From: Candidatus Dojkabacteria bacterium | GTDB taxonomy: Bacteria > Patescibacteriota > Dojkabacteria > SC72 | DNA length: 64,000 nucleotides | NCBI GenBank assembly: GCA_040767225.1 | Contig: JAXGOY010000002.1 | Span: forward strand, 17,410-81,409 | Direction of reading: 5' to 3' | Shown here: positions 3,520 to 50,673 of the stretch, in pieces | How the letters are laid out: each line of letters opens with the position of its first letter | Numbering within the stretch: position 1 is the first letter of the stretch | Notes under the pieces: generated by a model | Database searches by the model: none | Seen by the model: only the letters and a program-made list of their open reading frames with translations | What the model was told of the DNA's origin: nothing | Program-made: the position numbers and the translations under genes

Positions 3520-3596
3520 TGGTAGTGGGAGGTGGGATCGAACCACCGACCTTGGGTTTATGAATCCCATGCTCTAGCCAACTGAGCTATCCCACC
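3520..3596 (-). tRNA. tRNA with anticodon CAU (elongator Met or lysidine-type Ile2). G1-U72, CCA encoded.
   Basis: Reverse complement folds as GGTGGGA/TA/GCTC..GAGC/TGGGA-TTCATAA-... with T-arm GGTGGTTCGATCCCACC and an encoded CCA. Cloverleaf inspected by eye. Confidence 0.8.
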
Positions 3597-4864: not shown

Positions 4865-4940
4865 TGGTTGCGGGGGTTGGATTCGAACCAACGTCCTTCA
4901 GGTTATGAGCCTGACGAGCTGCCACTGCTCTACCCCGCGA
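4865..4940 (-). tRNA. Initiator tRNA-fMet (anticodon CAU) with unpaired C1-A72
   Basis: Reverse complement: CGCGGGG-TA-GAGC-AGTGGCA-GCTC-G-TCAGG-CTCATAA-CCTGA-AGGAC-GTTGG-TTCGAAT-CCAAC-CCCCGCA-ACCA. The C1-A72 mismatch is the bacterial initiator hallmark. Confidence 0.85.
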
Positions 4941-5570: not shown

Positions 5571-6458
5571 TTGGAAAAGGTATTAAATCCTCAATTTTCT
5601 AAATATCAAGAAGAGTTTATTAACGAGCTTCGTAATAAAGGAAGGTCTGAGTCAACAATCATTGCTTATGCAAAAGATATTGAACAACTATTAAACTTTT
5701 TCTCATCACGAGGTATAAATAGGTTACAGGATACTACAATTGTAGATTTAGAAGCATATAAGAAACACTTACAGGACAATAACTATACTCCAAAGAGTAT
5801 TTCTAGAAAAATAAATAGTACAAGAACTTTTTATAGATTTTTACTTGAGCGTTCTGTAGTTACTGATAACATTGCAGAGAAACTTGCACATCCTAAGTTT
5901 GAAACAAAACCTCCTAGAGTACTCTCTGAGATGGAGTATAGGGCACTGCGAGATGTAAGCAGAGGAGATATTAGACTTTATTCAATTGTAGAAGTACTTC
6001 TTCAAACAGGTATAAGAATCGGAGAGCTAGCAACTCTAACAATTGATGATATAAGGAGATCAAAAGAGGGTGTAGATTTTCTTTACATAAAGGCATCAGG
6101 TAGTCATCCTGCAAGAAAGGTTCCATTAAATAAATCTGCTAAAAAGGCAATTGATGCATACTTAGAAATAAGGCCTGAAACAGAAGATGACACTTTGTAT
6201 GTAACAAAGAATGGAAGGCCCCTGCTTGTAAGGAATATAAGAACAGCTATAGATAAAGCATTTGAGAAAGCAAGTATTAAAAATGCTAAGGTAAACGATC
6301 TTAGAAATACATTTATAGCACATCATTTAGCAAAGGGTGTAAGTCTTGTTACTGTATCAAAATTAGTAGGTCATAAAAGAATATCTACCACAGAGAAGTA
6401 CTTAGGACTTGTTACAGACAACAAGCCAGAGGCAGAGAAATTACTCAAAGAGTTATAA
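5571..6458 (+). CDS. Tyrosine recombinase, XerC/XerD family. TTG start.
   Basis: N-terminal core-binding (SAM-like) domain. C-terminal catalytic region with R..HxxR-like residues and LVGHKRISTTEKY (nucleophile Tyr). 295 aa. Confidence 0.8.
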   Translation: MEKVLNPQFSKYQEEFINELRNKGRSESTIIAYAKDIEQLLNFFSSRGINRLQDTTIVDLEAYKKHLQDNNYTPKSISRKINSTRTFYRFLLERSVVTDNIAEKLAHPKFETKPPRVLSEMEYRALRDVSRGDIRLYSIVEVLLQTGIRIGELATLTIDDIRRSKEGVDFLYIKASGSHPARKVPLNKSAKKAIDAYLEIRPETEDDTLYVTKNGRPLLVRNIRTAIDKAFEKASIKNAKVNDLRNTFIAHHLAKGVSLVTVSKLVGHKRISTTEKYLGLVTDNKPEAEKLLKEL

Positions 6459-6494: not shown

Positions 6495-6845
6495 TTACTT
6501 TTCAATAAATTCATCAAAGGTAGAACTAAGGCTCTCCTCAATCAAATTAAACCAGACATAATCTTCATATTTAGGACAAGGATTCTCTTTTATTAATTCA
6601 TTTCCTACTTTCTGATAAACAGACCACTCTGATTCTGAAATATTGCTCTTACTAAGTTTAGAATAGGGAATTTTATATTTATATTCCTCCATCTTACATA
6701 CAAGAGGAGAAATTCTCTCAAGTATAACAAAATCTGCCAAATTCGTTGCTTTCCAAAAAAAGATAAAGATAATATTTAAAAGAATAACCCAAACAACAAA
6801 AATTACCATTAAAACCCTCTGCTTATCCATAAAACTTGTAAACAA
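6495..6845 (-). CDS. Hypothetical small membrane protein
   Basis: 116-aa ORF with an N-terminal hydrophobic helix. No recognisable motif. Confidence 0.3.
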   Translation of the reverse strand: MFTSFMDKQRVLMVIFVVWVILLNIIFIFFWKATNLADFVILERISPLVCKMEEYKYKIPYSKLSKSNISESEWSVYQKVGNELIKENPCPKYEDYVWFNLIEESLSSTFDEFIEK

Positions 6846-6852
6846 ATTTAGA

Positions 6853-6928
6853 TGGTGGGAGCAGATGGAATCGAACCATCGACCACGGCTTTATAAGAAC
6901 CGCGCTCTACCGACTGAGCTATACTCCC
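6853..6928 (-). tRNA. tRNA-Ile with anticodon UAU (reads AUA)
   Basis: Reverse complement: GGGAGTA-TA-GCTC-AGTCGGTA-GAGC-G-CGGTT-CTTATAA-AGCCG-TGGTC-GATGG-TTCGATT-CCATC-TGCTCCC-A-CCA. Anticodon stem pairs cleanly and loop positions 34-36 are TAT. Confidence 0.8.
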
Positions 6929-6971: not shown

Positions 6972-9491
6972 CTAAAAATCAATAGGAGGAAAGCCTGATG
7001 GATTATTTTGTGTAGACTCATCCTCTACTCTATCTAAATCTGCTCTTCTATTTATCTCCATATTAACCAAGTTTATATCCCTCCCATACTTTAATCTAGA
7101 CATTTTAGTAATAATATCTTTAACCTCAGGATTAACTTTTAAATCAAAACCTGTTTCATTTACATATTTAGGACCATATCTTGCATCAAGAGAAAATGGA
7201 CTAGGATATGAATTATTTGTTAACATTTTTACATAGTAGTGTGCAAGCCCCTGATTTATTATATCCGTAGCCTTAACATATGTTTCAAATTGAGGTTCTA
7301 AAAACTGAGCATCCTCATTACTGCATCTTGTAATAAAGAGAGAACCTACATTCCCAAATACTGCATTTTTAATATCCTCTGGGAGCTGTCCAATATACTG
7401 ATGTGCAAGAGTAAGATTTAATCTATACTTCCTAGCCTCAGATAATATTGAAGCAAATTCCTGCGTTGCAAAGTTCTGAAACTCATCAGCATAAAAGAAG
7501 AAATCTTTTCTCTCACCCTCTGGAACATCTTCCCTGCTTAAAGCAGCTGCCAAAAGCTTTTGAACAAGCAAAAGACCTAGAAAAGACATATTCTCCTCAC
7601 CAAGAGCACCTTTAGAAAGGTTTACAATTAAAATCTTGCCTGTATCCATAACCTCTCTAAAATCAAAAGAAGATTTAGACTGCCCTATTATATTTCTAAT
7701 AGCTAAGTTAGTAGTAAATTTATCAAACTTACTAATAAAGTAACCAAGACTCTCTGATTTTGTCTTTGCATCAGTCTTAGCAACCTGGTCTGTCCAATAC
7801 CTTCTTACAAGCTCATCTTTAACAAGAGGAAGCCACTTTTCATATACCCATTTCTCATCTTGAAGCATTCTAACAACCTCTATCAGTGTAGAGCCCTGTA
7901 CACTCATTGCAGTAAGCATAGAGTTTCTCACTGCCTGTTGCATCATAGGGCCAACATACCCCTGATTATGAGGGTCAAAGAGACGTATAAGGAGATCTAT
8001 AAAACTGTTTACAATCTGGTGTTTATGCTGCTCATTATAAAATTCTAAGATGTTTAAACCAAAAGGTCTTTCAAAATCACCAGCATTAAAATATATAACA
8101 TCATCTGCTCTCTCTGGAGGAATTCTTTCAAGAATCATCTCTGCTGTTTCTCCATGGGGATCAATAAAACATACCCCATCGCCATTATATATATCCTGAA
8201 TAATCATTCTTACCATCAGCCATGACTTACCCGTACCTGTTTGCCCCAGTATATATGCATGTCTTCTTCTATCATCTCTTTGAAAGCATATAGCTTTAAC
8301 CTTACCTCTGAACACATTATTACCTACCCATATTGTATCCTTAGAATGAATATCTGAACTTATTTCATTGCTAGCAGGAAGCTCTCTCGCAAGAAGCCAA
8401 TTAATATTAGGAATAGTTACATCTTTGTTAGGAAAATGATATATAGCAGCAAGTTCTTCAACATTTAAAATACTACTAGATTCAAGTGGAGGTCTTCTAT
8501 ATATTACATCATACATAAACTCTTCCTCTTTCTTCTTCCCCTTTATCTCAACCTTCTTAAATTTATTAATCCCTGGATTGCTATACTGATCAAATGCACC
8601 AACGATATTATCTAAATGCATCTTGGCAAGTTCTTTGTCAGGAGCAGAAGTAACAATCCTAATATCTGTAATAAAACCGTTTTTACTAATCTTCTTTTGT
8701 ATTGCCTGTAACTTCTCTTCACTTACATTTATTTTCTTCTTTTCTGGATCAGAGTTATTATTTTGAATCTTTTTAACAAACCCCTCTCCATTCTTTTGCC
8801 ATTTATTATCTGACGGAGATATTACTATCTGAACTATAGCACCCTCTCCTTTAGACATCTTGCTTAAAGCACTAAGTATATTAGCCATAGGATCTCCAGT
8901 AAAATCAGAAGCAACTTTAATAGGACAGTAACTTTCCTCTGCCAACTGTAGTTTTGTATATGCAACTTCACTTCCTTTCTCAAATATGTTGTACTCTTCA
9001 ACCTTTCTAACATCAGCATCTTGATATGACCCAAGAATTTGTTTTTCTACATGCTCTGCAAACTTCTTAGGACAGTACACATAGAAATTTATAAGTCCAG
9101 GTGTCCCCACAACTTCAAAACTAATACTATTGTTTACTGTAAACTTTTCTGCAAGTCCTTTTCCTTTTCCCCCTATTCCAATAAGATTAGAAAACATTTT
9201 TTCAGCCACCCCTATCTCTGTTTCATTTCCCCTTGGTACTCTTACTTCAAAAAGAACCCAATTCTTTGCTTTTTCATTTCTATCTTTTCTTTTTAATCTA
9301 TCTTTAATTCTTAAGAATGAATATATAGCAATTGCTAATATAACAACAGCTGAAATTATCCAGCCCCATGGGATATCAACACTAGTTTTATTTACCTCCC
9401 CATATGTATCATTGGGATATTCAACTTGGTCTCCTACTGTAATATCTTCTTCGGGTATAGGCCCTACTTGAGTTAAAATATATTCTTTCAT
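6972..9491 (-). CDS. VirD4/TraG/TraD-like (TrwB-type) P-loop ATPase with long N-terminal membrane-anchored extension. HerA/DUF87-type alternative not excluded.
   Basis: 839 aa. One TM near residue 55. Walker A ILGQTGTGKSWLMV near residue 415. Walker B-like FFFYADEFQNF. Layout resembles T4SS coupling proteins annotated in CPR genomes as T4SS DNA-binding domain proteins. Confidence 0.55.
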   Translation of the reverse strand: MKEYILTQVGPIPEEDITVGDQVEYPNDTYGEVNKTSVDIPWGWIISAVVILAIAIYSFLRIKDRLKRKDRNEKAKNWVLFEVRVPRGNETEIGVAEKMFSNLIGIGGKGKGLAEKFTVNNSISFEVVGTPGLINFYVYCPKKFAEHVEKQILGSYQDADVRKVEEYNIFEKGSEVAYTKLQLAEESYCPIKVASDFTGDPMANILSALSKMSKGEGAIVQIVISPSDNKWQKNGEGFVKKIQNNNSDPEKKKINVSEEKLQAIQKKISKNGFITDIRIVTSAPDKELAKMHLDNIVGAFDQYSNPGINKFKKVEIKGKKKEEEFMYDVIYRRPPLESSSILNVEELAAIYHFPNKDVTIPNINWLLARELPASNEISSDIHSKDTIWVGNNVFRGKVKAICFQRDDRRRHAYILGQTGTGKSWLMVRMIIQDIYNGDGVCFIDPHGETAEMILERIPPERADDVIYFNAGDFERPFGLNILEFYNEQHKHQIVNSFIDLLIRLFDPHNQGYVGPMMQQAVRNSMLTAMSVQGSTLIEVVRMLQDEKWVYEKWLPLVKDELVRRYWTDQVAKTDAKTKSESLGYFISKFDKFTTNLAIRNIIGQSKSSFDFREVMDTGKILIVNLSKGALGEENMSFLGLLLVQKLLAAALSREDVPEGERKDFFFYADEFQNFATQEFASILSEARKYRLNLTLAHQYIGQLPEDIKNAVFGNVGSLFITRCSNEDAQFLEPQFETYVKATDIINQGLAHYYVKMLTNNSYPSPFSLDARYGPKYVNETGFDLKVNPEVKDIITKMSRLKYGRDINLVNMEINRRADLDRVEDESTQNNPSGFPPIDF

Positions 9492-9855: not shown

Positions 9856-10305
9856 TTACACCATATATTTTCTTTTTTCAAGTAGCAACTCCCTCTCCAT
9901 ATCCCTTTTCTTCTCTTCTTGCCTCTTCTCATGTACTTTCTTTCCTTTTGCTAACCCTACTTCAACCTTAAATATATTTCCTTTTAAATATATCCTTAAA
10001 GGAACTAAAGTAAGATTCCCCTGTTTCATTTTACTCTGTAAGTATATCAATTCCTTCTTTTTTATCAATAACTTCCTAGACCTTGTAGAATCATAATCTG
10101 AAGAACCATCATATTTGTATTGTGCTATATCAGCATTAATAAGCCAAAGCTGTCCATTTAAAATCTTTACATACGAATCCTTTAAATTACACCTTCCACC
10201 TCTTAAAGATTTAACCTCTGCACCTGTTAATACGACTCCTGCTTCAAATCTCTCTAATATCTGATAATTATGAAGTGCTTTTTTATTTACAATATTCATC
10301 TTCAA
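9856..10305 (-). CDS. smpB: SsrA-binding protein SmpB
   Basis: 149 aa. NKKALHNYQILERFEAGVVLTGAEVKSLR matches the conserved SmpB N-terminal core. Basic C-terminal tail. Confidence 0.9.
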   Translation of the reverse strand: MKMNIVNKKALHNYQILERFEAGVVLTGAEVKSLRGGRCNLKDSYVKILNGQLWLINADIAQYKYDGSSDYDSTRSRKLLIKKKELIYLQSKMKQGNLTLVPLRIYLKGNIFKVEVGLAKGKKVHEKRQEEKKRDMERELLLEKRKYMV

Positions 10306-15419: not shown

Positions 15420-15761
15420 TTAAAGTGTAACCTCTCCTTTAGTAATGGTATCTACTACAATTGAAAGAAGCATCTTAATTAAATACAAAAATGCTAAACC
15501 AGCAATAGACCATGTAAGTGTACCTTGTGCTCTCTTCTTTTTGTCAGGTTCTCCACCAGAAGTCATCCAAAGGTATCCCCCATATATTGTCATACCAACA
15601 GCAGCAAGTACACCAATAGGAAAGATAAAAGAAATAATTTTGCTCAACGAATCAAGTAGTACCTCTAATCTAGGGGGTTCTCCTGGAGCAACTAGCCCAT
15701 CTTCCTGAGCAAAAACTGGGCTACTAAACAAAACACTTAGCATTTTCACAACAAGGTTCAT
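15420..15761 (-). CDS. VirB2/TrbC-like (T4SS-pilin-like) small two-TM protein, paralog 1
   Basis: Signal peptide. TM1 PIGVLAAVGMTIYGGYLWMTSGGEPDKKKRAQGTLT, then TM2. Shares the GGY.YMT(A/S)GG(D/E) loop and two-TM layout with the five following genes. Confidence 0.5.
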   Translation of the reverse strand: MNLVVKMLSVLFSSPVFAQEDGLVAPGEPPRLEVLLDSLSKIISFIFPIGVLAAVGMTIYGGYLWMTSGGEPDKKKRAQGTLTWSIAGLAFLYLIKMLLSIVVDTITKGEVTL

Positions 15762-15800
15762 ACTGCTGTTTACTTAATATATGAATAAATTCTTAAAGAG

Positions 15801-16187
15801 TTAAGCTAAGAAAGTCATTAGCAAACTTTCTGCTGGTTGAACCCCTAAGAAATTCTTTAATACAAAGTTTACAAGTATAACAGCAATGAAACAAATTGCT
15901 AAACCAATCATAGCATTTGTTAGTGTTTTTGTAGCTTTCCCAACCTTCTGCTCATCACCACCTGCTGTCATATATGAATATCCTCCAACAATCAACATTA
16001 CAACACATATAACTGCAGCTGCACCAATCATCCAATTTAGAACATCAACAATTAAATCCTCACCAGTTTTGCTTGAACCTTGATTAAGCTTTGGAGAGAT
16101 GTCGTCCCAAAAAGATGCAAATGTTGCAATAGGAAAAGATAACAAAGTAACTCCTGATGCTAATACTTTTGACAACTTATTTTTCAT
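15801..16187 (-). CDS. VirB2/TrbC-like pilin paralog 2
   Basis: Conserved core LNWMIGAAAVICVVMLIVGGYSYMTAGGDEQKVGKATKTLTNAMIGLAICFIAVILVNFVLKNF. Confidence 0.5.
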   Translation of the reverse strand: MKNKLSKVLASGVTLLSFPIATFASFWDDISPKLNQGSSKTGEDLIVDVLNWMIGAAAVICVVMLIVGGYSYMTAGGDEQKVGKATKTLTNAMIGLAICFIAVILVNFVLKNFLGVQPAESLLMTFLA

Positions 16188-16255
16188 ATATTAAGTATTA
16201 ATAAATAAATTAATTAAATTATTATAATATATCTTCTTAAAAAGAACAATTATCT

Positions 16256-16627
16256 TTATTTTGTATTAGTAACTAAAAAATTCTTTAATACAAAGTTTAC
16301 CAACATTACAGCTACAAAACAAATAACTAAACCAATAATAGCATTAGTCAATGTCTTTGTTGCTTTCTGTGTTTTCTCTTCATTACCACCTGAAGTCATG
16401 TATGTAAATCCTGCAACAATTAACATAACTACACATACAACAGCAGAACCACCAATTAACCAGTTTAATACCTTAACAATTAAATCCTCAAGTGTTCCAG
16501 GAGTAGAAAGCAAACTATCAAAGATTTCATCTACCCACCCCATAGGACTTTCAGCTAAAGCTAACATAGGCATAAAAAATAATGGAATTTCTGCTAAAGC
16601 AATTTTAACTGTTTTTACAATCTTCAT
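16256..16627 (-). CDS. VirB2/TrbC-like pilin paralog 3
   Basis: Core LNWLIGGSAVVCVVMLIVAGFTYMTSGGNEEKTQKATKTLTNAIIGLVICFVAVMLVNFVLKNF. Confidence 0.5.
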   Translation of the reverse strand: MKIVKTVKIALAEIPLFFMPMLALAESPMGWVDEIFDSLLSTPGTLEDLIVKVLNWLIGGSAVVCVVMLIVAGFTYMTSGGNEEKTQKATKTLTNAIIGLVICFVAVMLVNFVLKNFLVTNTK

Positions 16628-16633
16628 CGCAAA

Positions 16634-17008
16634 TTACACTATTAATTTAGATTCTTCTTTAAATAAATACATTATTACAGGAGTTGGTCCCCCTCCACCA
16701 CCAGGAGGTGGAGAAGACTCTGGTTTCAAAAAATTATCAAGAACAAAATTAACTAACACTACTGCAATAAAACAAATAACTAAACCAATAATTGCATTCG
16801 TCAATGTCTTTGATGCATCTTTTACTTTACTTTCATCCCCACCTGCAGTCATATATGAATACCCTCCAACAATAATCATTACAACGCATACTACTCCTGC
16901 AGCACCAATAATCCAATTTAAAATAGTAACAATAAAATCACTTAAATCCCCCCCTGTCCCTTCAAACCCATCTAAAATTTCCTTAACACTTAACTGTGCG
17001 AAAGCCAA
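16634..17008 (-). CDS. VirB2/TrbC-like pilin paralog 4. N-terminus uncertain: an in-frame signal-peptide-like sequence lies upstream with no ATG. Has a unique Pro/Gly-rich C-terminal tail.
   Basis: Core ILNWIIGAAGVVCVVMIIVGGYSYMTAGGDESKVKDASKTLTNAIIGLVICFIAVVLVNFVLDNF. Upstream in frame (to about 17060) reads ...KITTIGVLLFSSVSLAFAQLSV, which looks like a signal peptide. Confidence 0.45.
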   Translation of the reverse strand: MAFAQLSVKEILDGFEGTGGDLSDFIVTILNWIIGAAGVVCVVMIIVGGYSYMTAGGDESKVKDASKTLTNAIIGLVICFIAVVLVNFVLDNFLKPESSPPPGGGGGPTPVIMYLFKEESKLIV

Positions 17009-17124
17009 CGAAACAGAACTAAAAAGTAAAACTCCAATCGTAGTTATTTTTGATAAACTTTTTTCACTTTTAAATATTTTTAATTTATAAAAGAAATGTA
17101 TCTAATACAAATTTTATCAACATC

Positions 17125-17431
17125 CTAGCCAAAAATACAATACATAGTCCAATAATTAGCTGTTAAAATGTTGCCTACCTTTTTCACATTATCAGGATCA
17201 CCACCAGCAGTCATATATGTAATCCCTGCATAGATTATTAAGTCAACAGCAACAACCGCAGATGCTCCAACAAGGAAATTTAGCAAGTCGATAAATAAAA
17301 TCAACAATACCCTCAACAGAAGAAAACCTCTCATTAAAAGAAGGAAAATTTATCTCCCATCCCCCTAATACAATAGGAAGGAATATCCATTTTCCTTTAT
17401 CTTCTTTGTTTTTTAAATCTTTCTTTCTCAT
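17125..17431 (-). pseudogene. Frameshifted VirB2/TrbC-like pilin paralog 5
   Basis: Two overlapping minus-strand ORFs in different frames, 17243-17431 and 17125-17334. The second carries the family core ASAVVAVDLIIYAGITYMTAGGDPDNVKKVGNILTA, so a single gene is split by a frameshift. Confidence 0.5.
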
Positions 17432-17442
17432 ATTATTATTTA

Positions 17443-17772
17443 TTATTCAGGTAAAAATAGATTCCCTATTAATAACAAAAGAGCCGCAGAAACTAAAATA
17501 AATACTAAACCAGTAATAGCATTCCCTATCTGCTCTCTTGCATCCTTAAGTTTATCAGGATTCCCCTGACTTGTTATCATTTTGTATGCAGCAAAAGCCA
17601 TAAGAAGTGCAGCTGCAAGAACACTAAGAGGTAGTGCGATATCGATTATATCCTGCATTATAGATTCTACATTTGTCTCCCCCGGATTACTCTTTTCAAT
17701 TCCACTAATAAGTTCTCCCACTTTCTCAGTAATCTGACTAGCATATATTTTAAAATTCTGTCTCATAAACAT
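17443..17772 (-). CDS. VirB2/TrbC-like pilin paralog 6 (most divergent)
   Basis: Core LPLSVLAAALLMAFAAYKMITSQGNPDKLKDAREQIGNAITGLVFILVSAALLLLIGNLF. Same two-TM plus loop architecture. Confidence 0.45.
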   Translation of the reverse strand: MFMRQNFKIYASQITEKVGELISGIEKSNPGETNVESIMQDIIDIALPLSVLAAALLMAFAAYKMITSQGNPDKLKDAREQIGNAITGLVFILVSAALLLLIGNLFLPE

Positions 17773-26553: not shown

Positions 26554-26962
26554 TGGTGGAGACGGTGGGACTTGAACCCACGTCCAAAAGCTAAGTACAG
26601 TCTCATTTACAAATATATTTAGATTTATATAGTTAGATTAAACTAAAAAATCTAACAAAAAGTCTAATCTACTCGGTAATTAATTTCACTAAGTATCCTC
26701 TACCGACAAAGAATACAAAGCATACCCTAGTAACGACTGTCTATATCTCTTAACTAGGGATAAGGGAAATAGACATTGACTAATATTTAGTCAAACTTAT
26801 GCAAAGTTAAAAGCATAATTAGGCATGCTAAAAGCAGCCTTCAGCTTACTTGCAAAAGCGTTAATTTTGTTTTCTACACTTATCTGTGTTTAAGTTTTAC
26901 GAACTTAAAAACGATTTGTGATAACTGCACTTACAGACTTTTGTCGAAAGCCTGACGTCCCC
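26554..26962 (-). ncRNA. ssrA: tmRNA (SsrA)
   Basis: Minus-strand 5' end GGGGACGTCAGGCTTTCGAC. 3' end is a tRNA-like T-arm plus acceptor GGACGTGGGTTCAAGTCCCACCGTCTCCACCA, pairing with the 5' GGGGACG (one G-U). A short internal reading window ends ...SMPNYAFNFA-stop, reminiscent of canonical ...NYALAA tags. Lies in a 510-bp ORF-free gap. Confidence 0.75.
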
Positions 26963-38461: not shown

Positions 38462-38908
38462 CTACTCTATATCAGAGCCAAGCTCTCTCATTTTTTCTTT
38501 AATTTTTTCATAAACCTCATCATCTCCAACTCTATCGTCACAATATTCATTAAAATAATCAGATTCACCGTCTACCCCATATTTTTTCTCTAACTCTTCC
38601 ATCTTTTTGCTATATTCTAATATCATAGGATCTGCAAGATCTGATTCTGCTATACGAAAAGCGTAAGCTAGTATTTCAATACAGGCCTCATCACTTATAT
38701 TCCCTGTATTGGGAGTTTTCGTTTCATTAGAAGTAGTATTGGGTGATTCGTCAGAATCTTCTTCGGTCGAAGTTATTGGGAGATTATTATTTTTTTCTGG
38801 ATCATAATCGATGTTTTTTTTAAATAAAAAGTCACTTTGATAAATAAATAATAAAATACATATAACTATTAATACGCCTATCAAAAAAATAATATTTTTT
38901 TTACTCAT
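38462..38908 (-). CDS. Hypothetical secreted/membrane-anchored acidic protein
   Basis: 148 aa. N-terminal TM, Ser/Thr/Asn-rich linker, Cys-containing acidic C-terminus. Intact ORF. Confidence 0.35.
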   Translation of the reverse strand: MSKKNIIFLIGVLIVICILLFIYQSDFLFKKNIDYDPEKNNNLPITSTEEDSDESPNTTSNETKTPNTGNISDEACIEILAYAFRIAESDLADPMILEYSKKMEELEKKYGVDGESDYFNEYCDDRVGDDEVYEKIKEKMRELGSDIE

Positions 38909-38984
38909 ATCGTAATGTATTTAATTAGTAAATTACTACCCTAAATACTAGTATAATATAAAAAATATTTTTATCAAATCATAC

Positions 38985-39460
38985 TTAAAAAATGTTAATT
39001 ATTACAATAACAAAGAGATAATCTCTAAGTATCATGTCTTCAATTTCTTCTCTATTCATATATCCTTCTTTTTCTAAACAACTATTTAAAGGAACAATTA
39101 AATGATCGATGAAAGTCATCCCCGTCATGAGTAACCTTTGTAATAGTATTAAATTTGTTAATGATTGACAAAATAGCTTACGCTTGGTGCGCAATGCAAA
39201 GAAGTTAAAAGTCCACCAGAAATTAGAAAATTTTTTACTTGAATTGCTTGAAGTATTTTACCACCTATGAGAAGATCTTCCTTTTTAAAAGCATCGGGAG
39301 AATTTGACTCTATCGTCGTTACTGCCACCTGAAGCTTGAATTTTTGTTATTGTTCCATCTGGATTTTTAATTTAATTGTCCTATCTTTCTTTTTCTCTTT
39401 CTTGATTTTTGGTTTTATGGGAAGACTAAAATAAACTGCGGGATATTGCTTAAATTTGCC
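38985..39460 (-). pseudogene. Fragmented ORF remnants (unknown function)
   Basis: Minus-strand translation gives ...IQVKNFLISGGLLTSLHCAPSVSYFVNH(stop) and, in another frame, ...SLTNLILLQRLLMTGMTFIDHLIVPLNSCLEKEGYMNREEIEDMILRDYL. The pieces look like one gene split by indels. Confidence 0.3.
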
Positions 39461-39464
39461 TATT

Positions 39465-40091
39465 TCATATTTTATATTTGATGTTTGGGCACTTTTTATC
39501 ATTTGAGCGAGCTTCTTTCATCATTTCTAATATTTTATTTATATTTTCTGTGCTATTCCCTTGTTTTTTCATTTCCTCCACTATTAAAGGATTTGTAAAT
39601 GCTTCTTCAATAGTCATATTATTTGGCGCACCCGGTATCGGTGTTCCTGCCAAACCTTTGGTAAATTGAGTTGCAAGATTTTCCAGCGCTTGAGAGGCAA
39701 CTTTCTCTTCTTTATAATTTATTACAGATATGTCTGTAATATGGTCATATTCTCGGAAAAACTTTATTTACATTATCTCTCATATCTTGAATATCTTTAA
39801 CGGTAAGTTGGGTTATCAGTCCTGTTTGAACGGCAAAAGTCATTGCATCATAAAAATCAGCCATTTTGCCTTTTTTTGTGATAATTCCAAAGGTTGAGTA
39901 GTTTCTGTTATATTGCCTCTTACTTCTGTTTTAATAATTTTGTTTCTTTCTCCTTTTCCAAGATCCATAAAAACTTCGGGATTTAAGTGTCCTAATTTAA
40001 AAATTAACTGCTGTTTATTTATCATTTCGTCAAGCACTTTCCACCTTTTAGTATCTATAATCTTTTCAATTTTTATGTCTTTTTTTATCAT
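39465..40091 (-). pseudogene. Frameshifted gene, about 210 aa if restored (unknown function)
   Basis: Three consecutive minus-strand frame pieces read contiguously: MIKKDIKIEK...SQKKAK / KKGKMADFYDAMTFAVQTGLITQLTVKDIQDMRDNVNKVF / EYDHITDISVINYKEEKVASQALENLATQFTKGLAGTPIPGAPNNMTIEE...KKCPNIKYKI. Breaks fall at an A7-8 run and a T5 run. Confidence 0.45.
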
Positions 40092-40098
40092 ATTTTTA

Positions 40099-40316
40099 TT
40101 TAATTAAATCATCGACACCAATACCTAGACCTTTAGCTATTTTCATAACCGTTTGAATTGAAGGTTTGTTATTACATTTGTTTCAATTTTAGTTAGTGTT
40201 GTATAGGGGAGATCGGATTTTCTCCCCAATTCATCTTGCATTAATCCCTGCTTATTTCTTAGCAGTTTTATCTTATTCTCAATTGTTTCGTTCTTTTTCT
40301 GACTTTTTATAGCTTC
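40099..40316 (-). pseudogene. XRE-family helix-turn-helix regulator with lost start codon and a 1-nt frameshift
   Basis: Minus strand reads (A)IKSQKKNETIENKIKLLRNKQGLMQDELGRKSDLPYTTLTKIETNVITNLQFKRL(stop). The +1 frame continues NPSIQTVMKIAKGLGIGVDDLIK(stop). Restoring one C in aacc(c)ttca gives a canonical HTH_3 protein. Expected ATG reads ATA (gct ata aaa). Confidence 0.6.
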
Positions 40317-40430
40317 CTAAGTATGATAACAATAATATGGATGCTTGTCTAACTCCTCATAAAATATAATTCTTGGATATAAAGTATTTTTATGATTTCT
40401 ATTCAAAGGTTTAGTATAGGAAGAAGAGTA

Positions 40431-40453
40431 TTAAGTTTTATATCTGAAAGTGT
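40431..40453 (+). repeat. Direct repeat copy 1 (TTAAG-N4-TATCTGAAAGTGT). Copy 2 lies at 41179-41203, five nt from the tRNA-Ser 3' end.
   Basis: ttaagttttatatctgaaagtgt at 40431-40453 versus tttaagctcatatctgaaagtgt at 41179-41203. A 13-nt perfect core plus the TTAAG. Confidence 0.5.
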
Positions 40454-40519
40454 ATCCTTCCATTGTTGAGTTGCCACACTTCAGGTGGTAGAATTCACCA
40501 TTAATTTAATTCTATTTTA

Positions 40520-41123
40520 ATGTCAATAGAATTTGATTCAAAAGGAGATACAACCTATCAAGAAATAACTAACGATATAAAAGAGAATGGATACTATTCT
40601 CTACCTGCAGGATCTGTTATAGATGTTAAAATCACTACGGGAAACCAACAGAGATTCCCATTCTTGACATAAATAAAAATCAGACAGGAAAGATCGCAGA
40701 AAGTTATGATGATATTGATACCAAACAACTTAACCAGTTCCAAATAAGACAAGAATTGATGCTGGGGAGTGTTGTATCACATGATTTCCTAACAGGAGAA
40801 ACAGAACTTACGATTACTTCTCCAGAACTTGTTGATTTTGAAAAGAGGAGAAACGAATGGTATGCTAATTTAGCAAAAAGATATAAAATTTCAGATGATT
40901 ATATTGACGAAGAGCATGGGGAGAAAAATACTGGTCCTGTAGATATATCTTTATATATTAAGGATTATCCTAAAATAGCAGATGAAATACTTAGGAAGAG
41001 AGGTCTACAATAGAAAGAGATAGATTGCAGAGAGAAGCTGAAATTGAGTTTATAAAAACTTATGGGATCTCAATACCAGAAGATAAAACTCTGTTAAGAG
41101 TTTCTGCTATTATTAAAAGCTAA
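40520..41123 (+). pseudogene. Three-piece frameshifted gene, about 195 aa if restored (unknown function)
   Basis: Piece 1: MSIEFDSKGDTTYQEITNDIKENGYYSLPAGSVIDVKITTGNQQRFPFLT(stop). Piece 2 in another frame: ...NKNQTGKIAESYDDIDTKQLNQFQIRQELMLGSVVSHDF...ILRKRGLQ(stop). Piece 3 in a third frame: ERDRLQREAEIEFIKTYGISIPEDKTLLRVSAIIKS(stop). Confidence 0.5.
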
Positions 41124-41207
41124 GTAATAAACAAAGGTAATTTAGATAGAAAGTAAGAAGTTTTAGACCTATTTCTATTTTAAGCTCATATCTGAAAGTG
41201 TTGTCAA

Positions 41208-41294
41208 CGGAGAGAGTGGGATTCGAACCCACGGTACGATTTCTCATACGCACGCTCTCCAAGCGTGTCCTTTCGACCGCTCAGGCATCTCTCC
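41208..41294 (-). tRNA. tRNA-Ser (anticodon GGA), class II
   Basis: GGAGAGA-TG-CCTG-AGCGGTCGAA-AGG-A-CACGC-TTGGAGA-GCGTG-(long variable arm)-GTGGG-TTCGAAT-CCCAC-TCTCTCC-G. Confidence 0.8.
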
Positions 41295-41371
41295 TGGTGT
41301 ACCCGGCCGGAATCGAACCGGCAACCTACTGCTTAGAAGGCAATTGCTCTATCCGATTGAGCTACGGGTAC
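41295..41371 (-). tRNA. tRNA-Arg (anticodon UCU)
   Basis: GTACCCG-TA-GCTC-AATCGGATA-GAGC-A-ATTGC-CTTCTAA-GCAGT-AGGTT-GCCGG-TTCGATT-CCGGC-CGGGTAC-A-CCA. Directly abuts the tRNA-Ser above. Confidence 0.85.
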
Positions 41372-46359: not shown

Positions 46360-48597
46360 ATGAAGGACGATATTTCAAAAACATTTCAACAGGAAGAAAG
46401 AGACATATATTCTCTTTGGGAAAGTTCTGGTTTGTTTAATCCTGATAATATGGAGAAATTCTTAAAAGAGAAGAAGGTTGAAGTAAAGAAACCTTTCACA
46501 ATTTCTCTTCCTCCTCCTAATGCTAATGGTAATTTACATCTTGGGCATATGTGTGGTTACTCTTTTCATGATGCAATAGGGAGATATATGAGAATGACAG
46601 GTCATCCTACACTTCTTCTGCCTGGGAAAGACCATGCAGGTATCCAAACTGAAACTGCATTTAGTGCAGAGCTGGAAAGGCGAGGAGAGAGTAAATGGGA
46701 GATGGGAAGGGAAGAATTCTTTAAACAGTGTTATGACTTTTGTATGAAGAATGCATCTAATGCAAGGGAGCAGGAGAAAAATATTGGGCTTAGTGCCGAT
46801 TACAGTAGAGAATTTTTTACATTAGATCCAAGACTTACAAAGGTTGTATATGAGACTTTTGAGATGCTGTTTAAGGGTGGATTGGTATACAGAGATAAAA
46901 GGATTGTAAATGTTTGTCCTAATTGTAAGACTGCATTAGCAGATATTGATACAGAGCATGAAGAAAGAAGAGGAATATTTGCGTTTATTAAATACCCTGT
47001 TGTTGGAAGCAGGGGTGAATATATTATAGTTGCAACTACAAGACCTGAAACAATGCTTGGGGATAGTGCTGTTGCAGTAAATCCTAAGGATGAGAGATAC
47101 AAAAAACATATTGGTAAAAAGGTTTTGCTCCCTATTCAAAACAAAGAAATTCCAGTTATTGCAGATGAAAGTGTTGATATGGAAGTAGGTACTGGTGCAG
47201 TTAAAGTAACCCCTGCTCACTCCCCAGTTGATTTTGATTTAGGTAAAAAACATGGTCTTGAAATTGTCAATGTTATTGATGAAAACGGAAAGATGACAGG
47301 AGATATTCCTGAGAAATACAAAGGAATGCACACTATTACTTGCTCAAAACAGCTTTGTGAAGATTTGGACAAACTGGGCCTGCTTGAAGATATTCAAAAC
47401 ATTAAACATGATGTAGCGATATGTGAGAGATGTGGTACTCCTGTTGAACCAATAATCTCAAATCAGTGGTTTGTTAATGTAGATAATTTAGCAGAAAAAG
47501 CACTTGGAGCACTTGAAAATGGTGATGTTAGGGTAATTCCTCATGGTCAACAGAAAGCATTAGAGTTTTTCTTTGAGAATATTAAGCCATGGTGTATTTC
47601 AAGGCAGTTATGGTGGGGGCAAAGAATTCCTGTATGGTACAGTGGAGGTAAAAAGCTTTATGATTGGTTAAATGAAAACAAAGGAAAGACGGTTAAGGAT
47701 TTTGAGAAAGAGTTTAATGTTAAGGTAAAAGGTGATGGGAGCATATATATTGGAGAGAAGCCACCTAAAACAGAAGGTGAATGGGAAGCTGAAACTGATG
47801 TCTTTGATACTTGGTTTAGTTCTGGTCAATGGCCGTTTTCTACTCTAGGAGGGCCTGATGGAGAGGATTTTAAGAAATACTATCCTACACAAACAATGAT
47901 TCATGCAAGAGATATTCTTTTTTGGTGGTCTGCTAGAATGCTTATGCTTGGAATATACAGAACAGGGCAGGTCCCTTTTAATACAATTTTTTTAACAGGA
48001 ATGATTTTAGCTTCTGATGGTTCAAAGATGTCAAAAAGTAAAGGGAATGGTGTTGAGCCTCAAGAGGTTTTCGATAAATATGGGGCTGATGCTCTTAGAC
48101 TTTGGTATTATTCTGATGCTCTTCCTGGTTCTAATGCTCCTTTAAGGGAAGAAAAGATAAAAGGAAACAGAAATTTTGTTAACAAGATATGGAATGCAAG
48201 TAGGTTTATAATCTTAAATATTGATGAGAGTGAGATAGGGAAAGTTGCTAATTTTAAGGTAGATATGAAGCTTGAAAGAGTAAAACAAACAGAGGCACAT
48301 ATACAAAAGGTAAGCAAGTACATTGAGAAATATCAGTTTAATCTTGGTGCAGAGGCTATAAGGGAGTTCTTCTGGCATCAGCTTTGTGATATATGGATAG
48401 AAGAAGTAAAAAAAGAGATTAAAGATGAGAGTATTGGTTCTGAGAAGAGGATTGAGAAGCTTTCAGAGCTTTTATACATTTTAAAAAGAAATTTGATAAT
48501 TATGCATCCTTTTGTTCCTTTTGTTACAGAGTCTGTATGGCAGGAGTTAGTGAAGTTACATCTTGCAGATGGGCTTTTAATGAGTCAACAGATATAA
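46360..48597 (+). CDS. valS: Valyl-tRNA synthetase (short, lacks the usual C-terminal coiled-coil)
   Basis: 745 aa. PPPNANGNLHLGHM (HIGH), GKDHAGIQTE, KMSKSKGN (KMSKS), anticodon-binding region ending ...MHPFVPFVTESVWQEL. Confidence 0.85.
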   Translation: MKDDISKTFQQEERDIYSLWESSGLFNPDNMEKFLKEKKVEVKKPFTISLPPPNANGNLHLGHMCGYSFHDAIGRYMRMTGHPTLLLPGKDHAGIQTETAFSAELERRGESKWEMGREEFFKQCYDFCMKNASNAREQEKNIGLSADYSREFFTLDPRLTKVVYETFEMLFKGGLVYRDKRIVNVCPNCKTALADIDTEHEERRGIFAFIKYPVVGSRGEYIIVATTRPETMLGDSAVAVNPKDERYKKHIGKKVLLPIQNKEIPVIADESVDMEVGTGAVKVTPAHSPVDFDLGKKHGLEIVNVIDENGKMTGDIPEKYKGMHTITCSKQLCEDLDKLGLLEDIQNIKHDVAICERCGTPVEPIISNQWFVNVDNLAEKALGALENGDVRVIPHGQQKALEFFFENIKPWCISRQLWWGQRIPVWYSGGKKLYDWLNENKGKTVKDFEKEFNVKVKGDGSIYIGEKPPKTEGEWEAETDVFDTWFSSGQWPFSTLGGPDGEDFKKYYPTQTMIHARDILFWWSARMLMLGIYRTGQVPFNTIFLTGMILASDGSKMSKSKGNGVEPQEVFDKYGADALRLWYYSDALPGSNAPLREEKIKGNRNFVNKIWNASRFIILNIDESEIGKVANFKVDMKLERVKQTEAHIQKVSKYIEKYQFNLGAEAIREFFWHQLCDIWIEEVKKEIKDESIGSEKRIEKLSELLYILKRNLIIMHPFVPFVTESVWQELVKLHLADGLLMSQQI

Positions 48598-48909: not shown

Positions 48910-50673
48910 TTATTGTATCTTTTCAAACAATATCTCTGGAGTATTTAAATGAGTACCACTATCTATTTGAGTAAACTTCCAATTATTTAGTATTTTACTT
49001 ACTTTACCATTCTTCTCTAAATCAATATTTTGATCATATTCATCTTGTATATTAAGCATAATTTTAAGCTTTTCAGAACTATTAGGTGTAAAAGGCTTTA
49101 GAAGTATCCTTAATGCATTAACTAACTGTATTGAGTTAAAAATAGTATTCTCACAATCTTTAATATTTTCTTTAAATGATACCCATGGAGCTTTATCATT
49201 AAAATATTTGTTTGCAAAATCTCCTAAATGAAGAAGTTCTTCACTTGCTTTTACAAACTCACATTTTTCTATATACTCTCCTATTTTGTTAAATTCCTTT
49301 TCTATTTCTTTTTGTACATTATTCTCTAAACTTCCCTTAGGAACAGTATTATTAAACTTTGTATTAACAAATGTAAGTGTTCTGTTTATAAAATTACCAA
49401 TGTTAGCTACAAGTTCATTGTTATTACAATCAATAAAATCAGACCATTCAAACTCTCTATCATGATTTTCAGGAGAGTTTCTTACAAAGAAGAACCTTAT
49501 TAAATCAGGACTATACTTTTCAAGAAGTGAATCTGCACTCATTCCAGTATTATCACTCTTTGACATCTTCTTTCCTTTGTAAAGAAGCATTTTGTTAGCA
49601 GGGACATCATATGGTAGATTTAGTTTTTCTCTTTTACTCTCCCCTGGTAGTTTGTATTTCTCCCACAAAACATCATTAGTATATTTTTCATTGTATGCAA
49701 TTAACTGTCCAGGCCATATTATCGTATGAAATGGGACATTCCCACCTGCGATAAAATAGTAATGTTTACAGTCTGGGTCTTTCCAAAAGTTTTCCCATTT
49801 ACTTGAATCTCCACTCTTTTGTGCCCATTCTATTGATGCAGAGAGATACCCTATTACTGCCTCCATCCATACATATATTACTTTGTCTTCCCATCCTTGA
49901 ACTGGAACAGCTATTCCAAATTTCATATCTCTTGTTACCTCTCTTGGTTCCAGTCCTTCATTAATCCAACCTTTTGAAAATTCTCTTACCCATTTTCTCC
50001 AGTGAATACCTTGTTTATCTATCCACTCTGAAAGTGGTTTCTCTAATTTCTTAAGATCAAGATAAAAATGTTCTGTTTCTTTTAATACAGGTTTGGTATC
50101 TGAAAGGGTACTGTATGGATTAATTAAGTCTGTTGGTTTAAGAAATGCACCGCATGTTGGACATTCATCTCCTCTTGCATTTGGCTCACCGCAGTTTGGA
50201 CATGTTCCTCTTACATATCTATCAGGAAGAAATTTCCCTACCTTTTCATCAAAAAATTGTTTTGATTTTTTAGGATAGAGATATCCAAGTTCTTTAAGTA
50301 CTAAAAAGATATTCTGTGTAACTTCTTTATGATTTTCAGTTGTAGTAGATGTATAGTTCTCATATATTAAAGAAAGTTTTTTGAATGTTTCTTTAATCTC
50401 TTTATGAGATTGCTGAGCGAGTTTTTCAGGTTCTATTCCAAGTTCTTGTGCTTTAAAGAGTATGGGGGTACCGTGGCTATCACTTCCTGAAACCATTAAT
50501 ACCTCATTGCCCTTAAGTCTGTGATATCGTGCAAAGACATCACAGGTAATGTTTTGACCTGCTAGATGTCCTAAGTGAATTTTTCCACTAGCATATGGCC
50601 ATGAGACTCCGATAAATATTTTGTTTGTATTGCTTTTATTCATAATTTCAGTTTTAATTATATCAGAATACAA
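48910..50673 (-). CDS. metG: Methionyl-tRNA synthetase
   Basis: 587 aa. YASGKIHLGHLAG (HIGH), zinc knuckle CPNCGEPNARGDECPTCG, KMSKSDNTG (KMSKS). Confidence 0.9.
   Translation of the reverse strand: MYSDIIKTEIMNKSNTNKIFIGVSWPYASGKIHLGHLAGQNITCDVFARYHRLKGNEVLMVSGSDSHGTPILFKAQELGIEPEKLAQQSHKEIKETFKKLSLIYENYTSTTTENHKEVTQNIFLVLKELGYLYPKKSKQFFDEKVGKFLPDRYVRGTCPNCGEPNARGDECPTCGAFLKPTDLINPYSTLSDTKPVLKETEHFYLDLKKLEKPLSEWIDKQGIHWRKWVREFSKGWINEGLEPREVTRDMKFGIAVPVQGWEDKVIYVWMEAVIGYLSASIEWAQKSGDSSKWENFWKDPDCKHYYFIAGGNVPFHTIIWPGQLIAYNEKYTNDVLWEKYKLPGESKREKLNLPYDVPANKMLLYKGKKMSKSDNTGMSADSLLEKYSPDLIRFFFVRNSPENHDREFEWSDFIDCNNNELVANIGNFINRTLTFVNTKFNNTVPKGSLENNVQKEIEKEFNKIGEYIEKCEFVKASEELLHLGDFANKYFNDKAPWVSFKENIKDCENTIFNSIQLVNALRILLKPFTPNSSEKLKIMLNIQDEYDQNIDLEKNGKVSKILNNWKFTQIDSGTHLNTPEILFEKIQ

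Follow-up and report, generated by a model that had tools for sequence, protein, structure and literature searches.

A conserved tRNA-Ile(UAU) gene in Candidatus Dojkabacteria, a probable principal decoder of AUA

The tRNA-Ile(UAU) gene and its orthologues

We analyzed a stretch of 64,000 nucleotides from a Candidatus Dojkabacteria bacterium (contig JAXGOY010000002.1; hereafter the window) for a tRNA gene on its minus strand, at positions 6853–6928, that encodes an isoleucine tRNA with a UAU anticodon. Of the eight genes for tRNAs or tmRNA that ARAGORN reports in the window, one is this tRNA-Ile with the anticodon tat, whose 76 nt comprise a 73-nt body and an encoded CCA. The Rfam tRNA family RF00005 matches it at 6856–6928 with 70.5 bits (E=2.3e-13, against a gathering score of 29), all of model positions 1–71 of 71 being covered and none of the pairs being non-canonical. 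Read from the minus strand, the RNA is GGGAGUAUAGCUCAGUCGGUAGAGCGCGGUUCUUAUAAAGCCGUGGUCGAUGGUUCGAUUCCAUCUGCUCCCACCA. Its acceptor stem extends from G1-C72 to A7-U66 with a single U6.G67 wobble; GCUC/GAGC forms the D stem, and CGGUU/AGCCG, which includes the wobble pair U30.G40, the anticodon stem. The T arm is GAUGG-UUCGAUU-CCAUC, with A73 as the discriminator base. The anticodon loop of 7 nt, C32-U33-U34-A35-U36-A37-A38 (CUUAUAA), places the anticodon U34-A35-U36 at window positions 6895–6893. Folded as a single sequence, the tRNA has a free energy of -28.4 kcal/mol (z = -2.8 versus shuffles), and neither a promoter nor a terminator of its own was found above shuffle expectation. A sequence-only reading of this DNA had described a clean cloverleaf with the loop CTTATAA and the anticodon UAU, and ARAGORN and Rfam agree with it on both the gene and the register: the structure-aware caller also places tat at position 34, and a pseudo-tRNA with a poor covariance score is contradicted by the 70.5 bits and the canonical pairing throughout. 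We confirm that the window contains a genuine gene for tRNA-Ile whose UAU anticodon is encoded in the genome. The further remark of the sequence-only reading, that such genes are rare among bacteria, matches published surveys (PMC3575796, PMC6063277, PMC8007984).

To follow the gene across relatives, we relied on its neighbour, which encodes a DUF8128/DUF87 (HerA-like) ATPase of 839 aa (6972–9491, minus strand; Pfam DUF87 and PF26449 DUF8128), has its stop codon 43 nt upstream of the tRNA and serves as a syntenic anchor across Dojkabacteria. Searching with this ATPase yielded 51 species-level genomes; relatives at 68–97% identity include genomes that several independent submitters have assigned to Candidatus Dojkabacteria or candidate division WS6, and the identical protein sequence recurs on contigs of many metagenomes, the species being present in digester or wastewater samples. 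Many relatives (among L007–L057, all carrying binchicken or SRP/ERP co-assembly isolate names) bear the title ‘uncultured Candidatus Saccharibacteria bacterium’ and one ‘uncultured Thermococci archaeon’, labels that look wrong or generic given ATPase proteins 70–97% identical to, and synteny with, those of Dojkabacteria/WS6 genomes; by similarity the Saccharibacteria-labelled genomes group with the Dojkabacteria. In 49 of the 51 relatives ARAGORN calls a tRNA-Ile(tat) immediately 3′ of the gene for the ATPase, and a search with the anticodon-arm pattern brings this to 50 of 51 by adding L042, where a partial copy runs up to the contig end; the sole genome without a copy is L012, whose contig ends ahead of the site. 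An orthologous copy in 50 of 51 related genomes makes the gene more than a chance occurrence.

The 56 copies of tRNA-Ile(UAU) collapse to 32 distinct ARAGORN sequences and, once the variable ends are trimmed, to 21 distinct cores of 73–74 nt. The anticodon arm CGGUU-CUUAUAA-AGCCG is invariant in all 56. None of the 21 pairs in the consensus cloverleaf of the 21 distinct orthologues is broken, and two of them show compensatory double changes (G5-C68 to A5-U68, and A50-U64 to G50-C64). In most loci tRNA-Ile(UAU) is followed by an initiator-type and then by an elongator-type CAU tRNA, and the gene order of the loci inspected is smpB, a small open reading frame (ORF), the ATPase gene, tRNA-Ile, a small ORF, xer, divIC, tRNA-fMet, hpt, efp, tRNA-Met, ftsH and polA. 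This order from smpB to polA is kept even where the ATPase is just 68–80% identical. We conclude that tRNA-Ile(UAU) is a core gene, inherited vertically and held under strong purifying selection.

The site had earlier been described as lying between a tyrosine recombinase and a VirD4-like ATPase. Both neighbours are there, but the likeness to VirD4 did not hold: models of the VirD4/TraD coupling proteins reach only 38–40 bits on the ATPase against cut-offs of 250–366, a weak and sub-threshold similarity in what is a DUF8128/DUF87 protein. The recombinase (5571–6458, plus strand; Pfam Phage_integrase and SAM_1) has XerC/XerD/XerA as its best NCBIfam matches, under their cut-offs, and keeps the same position in related loci, as a housekeeping-type gene conserved in synteny and not the integrase of an element. 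Were the tRNA not a core gene but cargo of an integrated mobile element or phage, or the site where one attaches, one could point to this recombinase about 400 nt away, to the faint resemblance of the ATPase to coupling proteins, to genes for type IV secretion system (T4SS) pilins at 15.4–17.8 kb, and to tRNA-Ile(UAU) genes with the same anticodon arm, CGGUU-CUUAUAA-AGCCG, on three viral contigs (L071, L072 and L073; IMG/VR contigs, one giant-virus metagenome-assembled genome, MAG). We nevertheless regard such an origin as very improbable. The viral tRNAs differ in their acceptor and T stems, the region lies about 26 kb from dnaA/dnaN, and the GC content is a uniform 0.29–0.36 throughout the window, the chromosome being 32% GC. 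The variable presence and element-type integrase of a mobile tRNA are likewise not what we found, given the same block order in 50 of 51 genomes, down to those with the most divergent ATPases, and a recombinase of Xer type.

AUA codons, CAU tRNAs and the lysidine route

The expectation that AUA would be a frequent codon in this AT-rich genome was borne out by a count of 17,845 codons in the 52 window ORFs of at least 100 aa. AUA occurs 733 times (41.1 per 1000 codons), ahead of AUU (698; 39.1 per 1000) and AUC (133; 7.5 per 1000), with AUG at 298 (16.7 per 1000); it is thus the commonest isoleucine codon, making up 47% of the total, and is present in all 52 ORFs. Across 42 related loci its usage is 20–43 per 1000 (median 31), or 27–60% of isoleucine codons. 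The figure for the window is slightly above the 39 per 1000 of Borrelia burgdorferi, which has been quoted as the upper end of bacterial usage (PMC12514573). When eight window proteins were aligned codon by codon to their orthologues in related loci (272 pairs), AUA codons of the window faced AUA, AUU or AUC in 58% of cases, valine codons in 19%, leucine codons in 12% and AUG in 1.9%. The AUU codons of the window have the same profile (AUG 2.7%), and its AUG codons face AUG in 51% of cases. Because the AUA profile is like that of AUU and unlike that of AUG, AUA is an ordinary and very frequent isoleucine codon, with tRNA-Ile(UAU) as its predicted cognate Watson–Crick reader.

Under the criteria of PMC1635315, the tRNA bears Ile-like marks at G3-C70, U12-A23, A37, A38 and A73. 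The same anticodon arm is also found in tRNA-Ile(GAU) genes of unrelated organisms, and overall identity is 0.69–0.76 to Escherichia coli ileV versus 0.65–0.66 to metT, a weakly informative comparison. Several points weigh against tRNA-Ile(UAU) as the isoleucine-charged and sole reader of AUA. Two elements recognized by E. coli IleRS are unmatched (A4-U69 in place of C4-G69, and G29-C41 in place of C29-G41), such identity elements being variable between lineages, and the IleRS gene lies outside the window, so the residue that would contact the wobble base is not readable there. Some bacteria pair a TAT gene with tilS (PMC3575796), and our search for tilS covered the 64-kb window and about 20 kb of flanks, or some 11% of a genome for which a complete Dojkabacteria sequence suggests a size of about 734 kb (PMC8172020). 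Charging with isoleucine and decoding itself are, moreover, inferred from what is established for tRNA-Ile, and the amino-acid identity of the tRNA is a prediction from its sequence. This last point, together with the general possibility, is also what could be said for a pseudo-tRNA, a mis-registered anticodon, or an AUA codon reassigned (e.g. to Met) and read by a tRNA that is not for isoleucine. We consider the chance of any of these negligible, in view of the high covariance score with every pair canonical, the compensatory changes and lack of broken pairs in 21 distinct sequences, the 7-nt loop with U33 and A37, and the alignment of AUA to AUU/AUC, not AUG, in orthologues. With AUA heavily used and exchanging with AUU and AUC, and with the tRNA conserved, we think it very probable that this is a functional, vertically inherited, chromosomal minor tRNA-Ile(UAU) and a principal AUA decoder, quite possibly the only one, in Candidatus Dojkabacteria.

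In the decoding that we propose, the transcript would be processed and, with A37 present, would probably receive N6-threonylcarbamoyladenosine (t6A) there, as tRNAs reading ANN codons carry t6A37. IleRS would then charge the tRNA, U34 would pair directly with the third-position A of AUA, and the codon would be read as isoleucine without conversion of a CAU tRNA to its lysidine form. Such a system would face two problems, namely the recognition of U34 by IleRS and the avoidance of AUG misreading through U.G wobble. The precedent of Mycoplasma mobile would predict an adapted anticodon-binding residue in IleRS and a ribosome that rejects U.G at AUG.

Two CAU tRNAs accompany the gene. The first (4865–4939, minus strand; called by ARAGORN, and by Rfam with 67.4 bits and pair 1-72 flagged as non-canonical) has a C1xA72 mismatch, A11-U24, G12-C23 and A29G30G31/C39C40U41, all fMet discriminators of PMC1635315, and is evidently the initiator tRNA-fMet(CAU). 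Its A29G30G31/C39C40U41 stands in place of the canonical three G-C pairs, a variant reported mainly for alpha-proteobacteria and chloroplasts (PMC1635315). The second (3520–3596, minus strand; ARAGORN; Rfam 64.5 bits) is of elongator type, with the loop UUCAUAA, an A31.A39 mismatch, G1.U72, U3-A70, G4-C69 and G5-C68. All of its 20 distinct orthologues have the arm UGGGA-UUCAUAA-ACCCA, in which the A31.A39 mismatch closes the anticodon stem; U3-A70 and G4-C69 are invariant among them, and pair 5-68 is G-C or A-U, never C-G. The G1.U72 wobble is confined to the window and its closest relatives, more distant ones (among L007–L055) having G1-C72.

The sequence-only reading had correctly noted an elongator-type CAU gene at this position, and had raised the prospect that the genome carries both ways of reading AUA. 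For that, the tRNA at 3520–3596 would itself have to be a lysidine-dependent tRNA-Ile2, which we consider unlikely. It is not an initiator, its A37, A38 and A73 are common to Met and Ile2 tRNAs, and it has U3-A70 where tRNA-Met usually has C3-G70, all of which would be compatible with tRNA-Ile2. According to Silva et al., however, tRNA-Ile(CAT) is indicated by G3, A3, C70 or T70, with C4-G69 and C5-G68 very frequent (PMC1635315), and none of these acceptor-stem marks occurs in the window tRNA or its 20 distinct orthologues. Its identity to the E. coli genes metT, ileX and ileV is 0.65–0.70 and only weakly discriminating, ileX (0.66) being no nearer than metT (0.66), and in a cell without TilS any CAU tRNA would be a substrate of MetRS. 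Since no genome can do without an elongator tRNA-Met and the conserved Ile(UAU)/fMet/CAU cluster offers no other candidate, we are confident in assigning it as the probable elongator tRNA-Met, and not a lysidine-type tRNA-Ile2. In annotation, the CAU tRNA beside ftsH should accordingly be named tRNA-Met.

We searched for TilS in several ways, bearing in mind that the roughly 67 related loci represent one syntenic region. None of the about 50 window ORFs scanned contains the TilS domains PF01171, PF09179 or PF11734, neither the window nor the related loci have an ORF whose SGGxDS PP-loop stands in a TilS-like context, and tblastn with E. coli TilS returned only noise (E ~9) in both. The gene order in Bacillus is tilS-hprT-ftsH. 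Mycoplasma species have tilS between pth and ftsH, a position from which it is gone in M. mobile (PMC1635315). The Dojkabacteria genes hpt and ftsH are neighbours separated by efp and the tRNA-Met gene, and no tilS was found beside either, including in more distant Dojkabacteria reached via Hpt homologues. In another candidate phyla radiation (CPR) genome hpt is located elsewhere, likewise without an adjacent tilS, which makes the argument from tilS synteny a weak one. When metagenomes were scanned for this anticodon arm carrying C34 or G34, no match fell on a Dojkabacteria-like contig; the three matches (L062–L064), two tRNA-Ile(GAU) and one CAU tRNA, were on unrelated contigs of 42–64% GC. 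The tRNA-Ile(UAU) thus appears to have no C34 twin, its arm being a recurrent Ile-type arm, and the CAU tRNAs seen in the window and related loci are the two already described, one initiator and one elongator lacking Ile(CAT) marks.

These results leave room for redundant decoding, in which TilS and a lysidine-type tRNA-Ile2(CAU) are encoded elsewhere in the genome and the UAU tRNA is an auxiliary AUA reader. We rate this at a little under an even chance. TilS was present in 98.18% of bacteria surveyed and has been described as evolutionarily stable (PMC6063277), there are several bacteria with both genes (PMC3575796), the stretch inspected is a small part of a genome of this type, and heavy use of AUA could favour two decoders. 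Set against this are the failure of domain, PP-loop and tblastn searches to find TilS in the window and/or the related loci, the lack of a C34 tRNA with this arm in Dojkabacteria-like metagenome contigs, and a strict retention and invariant arm that, in a streamlined genome of about 0.7 Mb, fit an essential gene and not a spare one. Loss of the lysidine pathway (TilS with tRNA-Ile2(CAU)) is made plausible by the streamlined genome, the universal retention of tRNA-Ile(UAU) and its invariant anticodon arm, and we would put its likelihood at about even. The same balance applies to the broader proposal that Dojkabacteria as a whole class may have discarded the lysidine system and have AUA read solely by the U34 tRNA.

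Genes of the replication-origin region

The window represents the replication-origin region, with dnaA/dnaN, of a small chromosome from Candidatus Dojkabacteria (WS6, CPR), and not a plasmid, phage or island. The standard bacterial code applies to its long ORFs, and Pfam and NCBIfam identify ftsH, efp, hpt, a DivIC-like gene, the XerC/XerD-like recombinase, the DUF87/DUF8128 ATPase, smpB, T4SS-type pilins, a SpoIID-domain protein, an AddA-like helicase-nuclease, glnA, dnaN, dnaA, rnpA, yidC, jag, RNase J, ValRS, MetRS, rpoD, dnaG, ksgA, and DUF4012 and PEGA proteins. The left flank carries polA and an ATP-dependent DNA ligase, and the right flank ftsK, rpoB, rpoC and rpsL; neither tilS nor ileS was found in these flanks, and no IleRS within the window. 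Directly downstream of tRNA-Ile(UAU), on the same strand, is a small ORF (6495–6845, minus; 116 aa as the longest ORF, 104 aa by gene callers in L001–L005) with no Pfam or NCBIfam match.

Two aminoacyl-tRNA synthetases are encoded in the window. The methionyl-tRNA synthetase (48910–50673, minus strand; Pfam tRNA-synt_1g, 462.8 bits; NCBIfam metG) is expected to charge the two CAU tRNAs. The other is a ValRS of 745 aa (46360–48597, plus strand; NCBIfam 818 bits), which on Pfam alone could be mixed up with a LeuRS or IleRS, an assignment that the NCBIfam result led us to reject. It covers positions 7–686 of the 860-position NCBIfam model, and the C-terminal part of a canonical ValRS is apparently missing.

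Several further features of the region were noted in passing. The tmRNA (26554–26962, minus strand; Rfam 110.6 bits) encodes a long tag of 26 residues, VENKINAFASKLKAAFSMPNYAFNFA, and its partner gene smpB (9856–10305, minus strand) is about 16 kb away, in the conserved block with tRNA-Ile(UAU). Small T4SS-type pilin paralogues (PF18895) stand in tandem at 15420–17772 on the minus strand, six being called in the same-species contig L001 (1718–4072), and this array adjoins the SpoIID-domain protein and the block of the DUF8128/DUF87 ATPase. On the minus strand, tRNA-Arg(UCU) (41295–41371) and tRNA-Ser(GGA) (41208–41294) have zero spacer by ARAGORN coordinates, while the Rfam end of the tRNA-Arg(UCU) body at 41298 leaves 3 nt between the two tRNA bodies. 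The adjoining ~2.3 kb (~38900–41200) contain short ORFs only (83–85 aa at most), with no family match among the ORFs scanned and with the flanking tRNA-Ser as the sole Rfam match at E <= 0.1.

Precedents and meaning of direct U34 decoding

The closest precedent is the tRNA-Ile2(UAU) system of M. mobile (Silva 2006, PMC1635315; Taniguchi 2013, PMC3575796), in which Arg865 of IleRS contacts the wobble base, a property of the ribosome blocks the reading of AUG, and U34 is unmodified (PMC3575796). Like Dojkabacteria, M. mobile has an encoded UAU isoleucine tRNA with A37 and A38, a small AT-rich genome that uses AUA heavily, and no tilS beside ftsH, its place in other Mycoplasma species. In M. mobile, however, the absence of tilS and tRNA-Ile(CAT), the unmodified U34, the role of IleRS Arg865 and the rejection of AUG have been demonstrated, whereas their counterparts in Dojkabacteria are hypothetical. 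Conversely, M. mobile is one species in a tilS-positive genus, whereas in Dojkabacteria the tRNA is a fixed feature of a CPR lineage of class rank (50 of 51 genomes).

As of 2013, the bacteria known to be tilS-less amounted to nine species in three clades, M. mobile being the only one studied in depth in the literature consulted, and metagenome databases held 371 distinct TAT tRNA genes whose origin was not known (PMC3575796). The tilS-less Bifidobacterium and Neorickettsia resemble Dojkabacteria in that whole lineages have the TAT gene, with UAU recognition attributed to a horizontally acquired, eukaryote-type IleRS2 (PMC3575796); the IleRS gene of our genome, as said, is outside the window. 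The redundant-decoder model is provided by Lactobacillus casei, L. plantarum, Cyanothece PCC 7424 and Ferrimonas balearica, which have both a TAT gene and tilS, a role as auxiliary second AUA reader having been proposed for the UAU tRNA of the two Lactobacillus species (PMC3575796); in Dojkabacteria, by contrast, the ~11% of the genome that we inspected yielded no tilS. A suppressor of tilS deletion in Bacillus subtilis, tRNA-Ile1 G34U, shows that bacteria can exchange the lysidine system for an isoleucine tRNA with U34 (PMC3919564). This suppressor is the major GAU tRNA mutated in the laboratory, whereas the Dojkabacteria gene is natural, separate and anciently fixed. Eukaryotic tRNA-Ile(UAU) and that of tiaS-less archaea share the UAU at gene level and the reading of AUA, in other domains of life (in part PMC3575796). 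The eukaryotic cytoplasmic form (pseudouridine-A-pseudouridine) comes from intron-containing genes and carries the pseudouridine modification.

Bacterial tRNA-Ile(UAU) is therefore already known as a rare way of reading AUA, and standard tRNA callers label the gene in public MAGs, so that calling it is nothing new in itself. Our full-text search found no literature linking lysidine with Patescibacteria or tilS with the candidate phyla radiation, and no mention of a UAU/TAT isoleucine tRNA was found in the papers checked on Patescibacteria/CPR tRNAs. The novelty lies in the lineage, a class of the CPR, together with the class-wide fixation of the gene at one syntenic site and its combination with AUA as the leading isoleucine codon.

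To read AUA and yet not misread AUG is a classic difficulty in decoding, for which the bacterial solution is almost always lysidine and natural exceptions are few. A class of uncultured, genome-reduced bacteria that retains tRNA-Ile(UAU) with an invariant anticodon arm, and in which AUA accounts for 27–60% of isoleucine codons, offers a much broader natural sample for U34 decoding, and opens the questions of which IleRS residues, ribosomal features or U34 modifications accompany it. If TilS proves to be missing in Dojkabacteria genomes, this should not be scored as genome incompleteness. Class-wide loss of the lysidine system, if true, would be the first class-level and the first CPR example of TilS-independent AUA decoding, and would imply that the reading of AUG as isoleucine is prevented throughout the lineage by an adaptation of IleRS or the ribosome, or by an unknown modification of U34.

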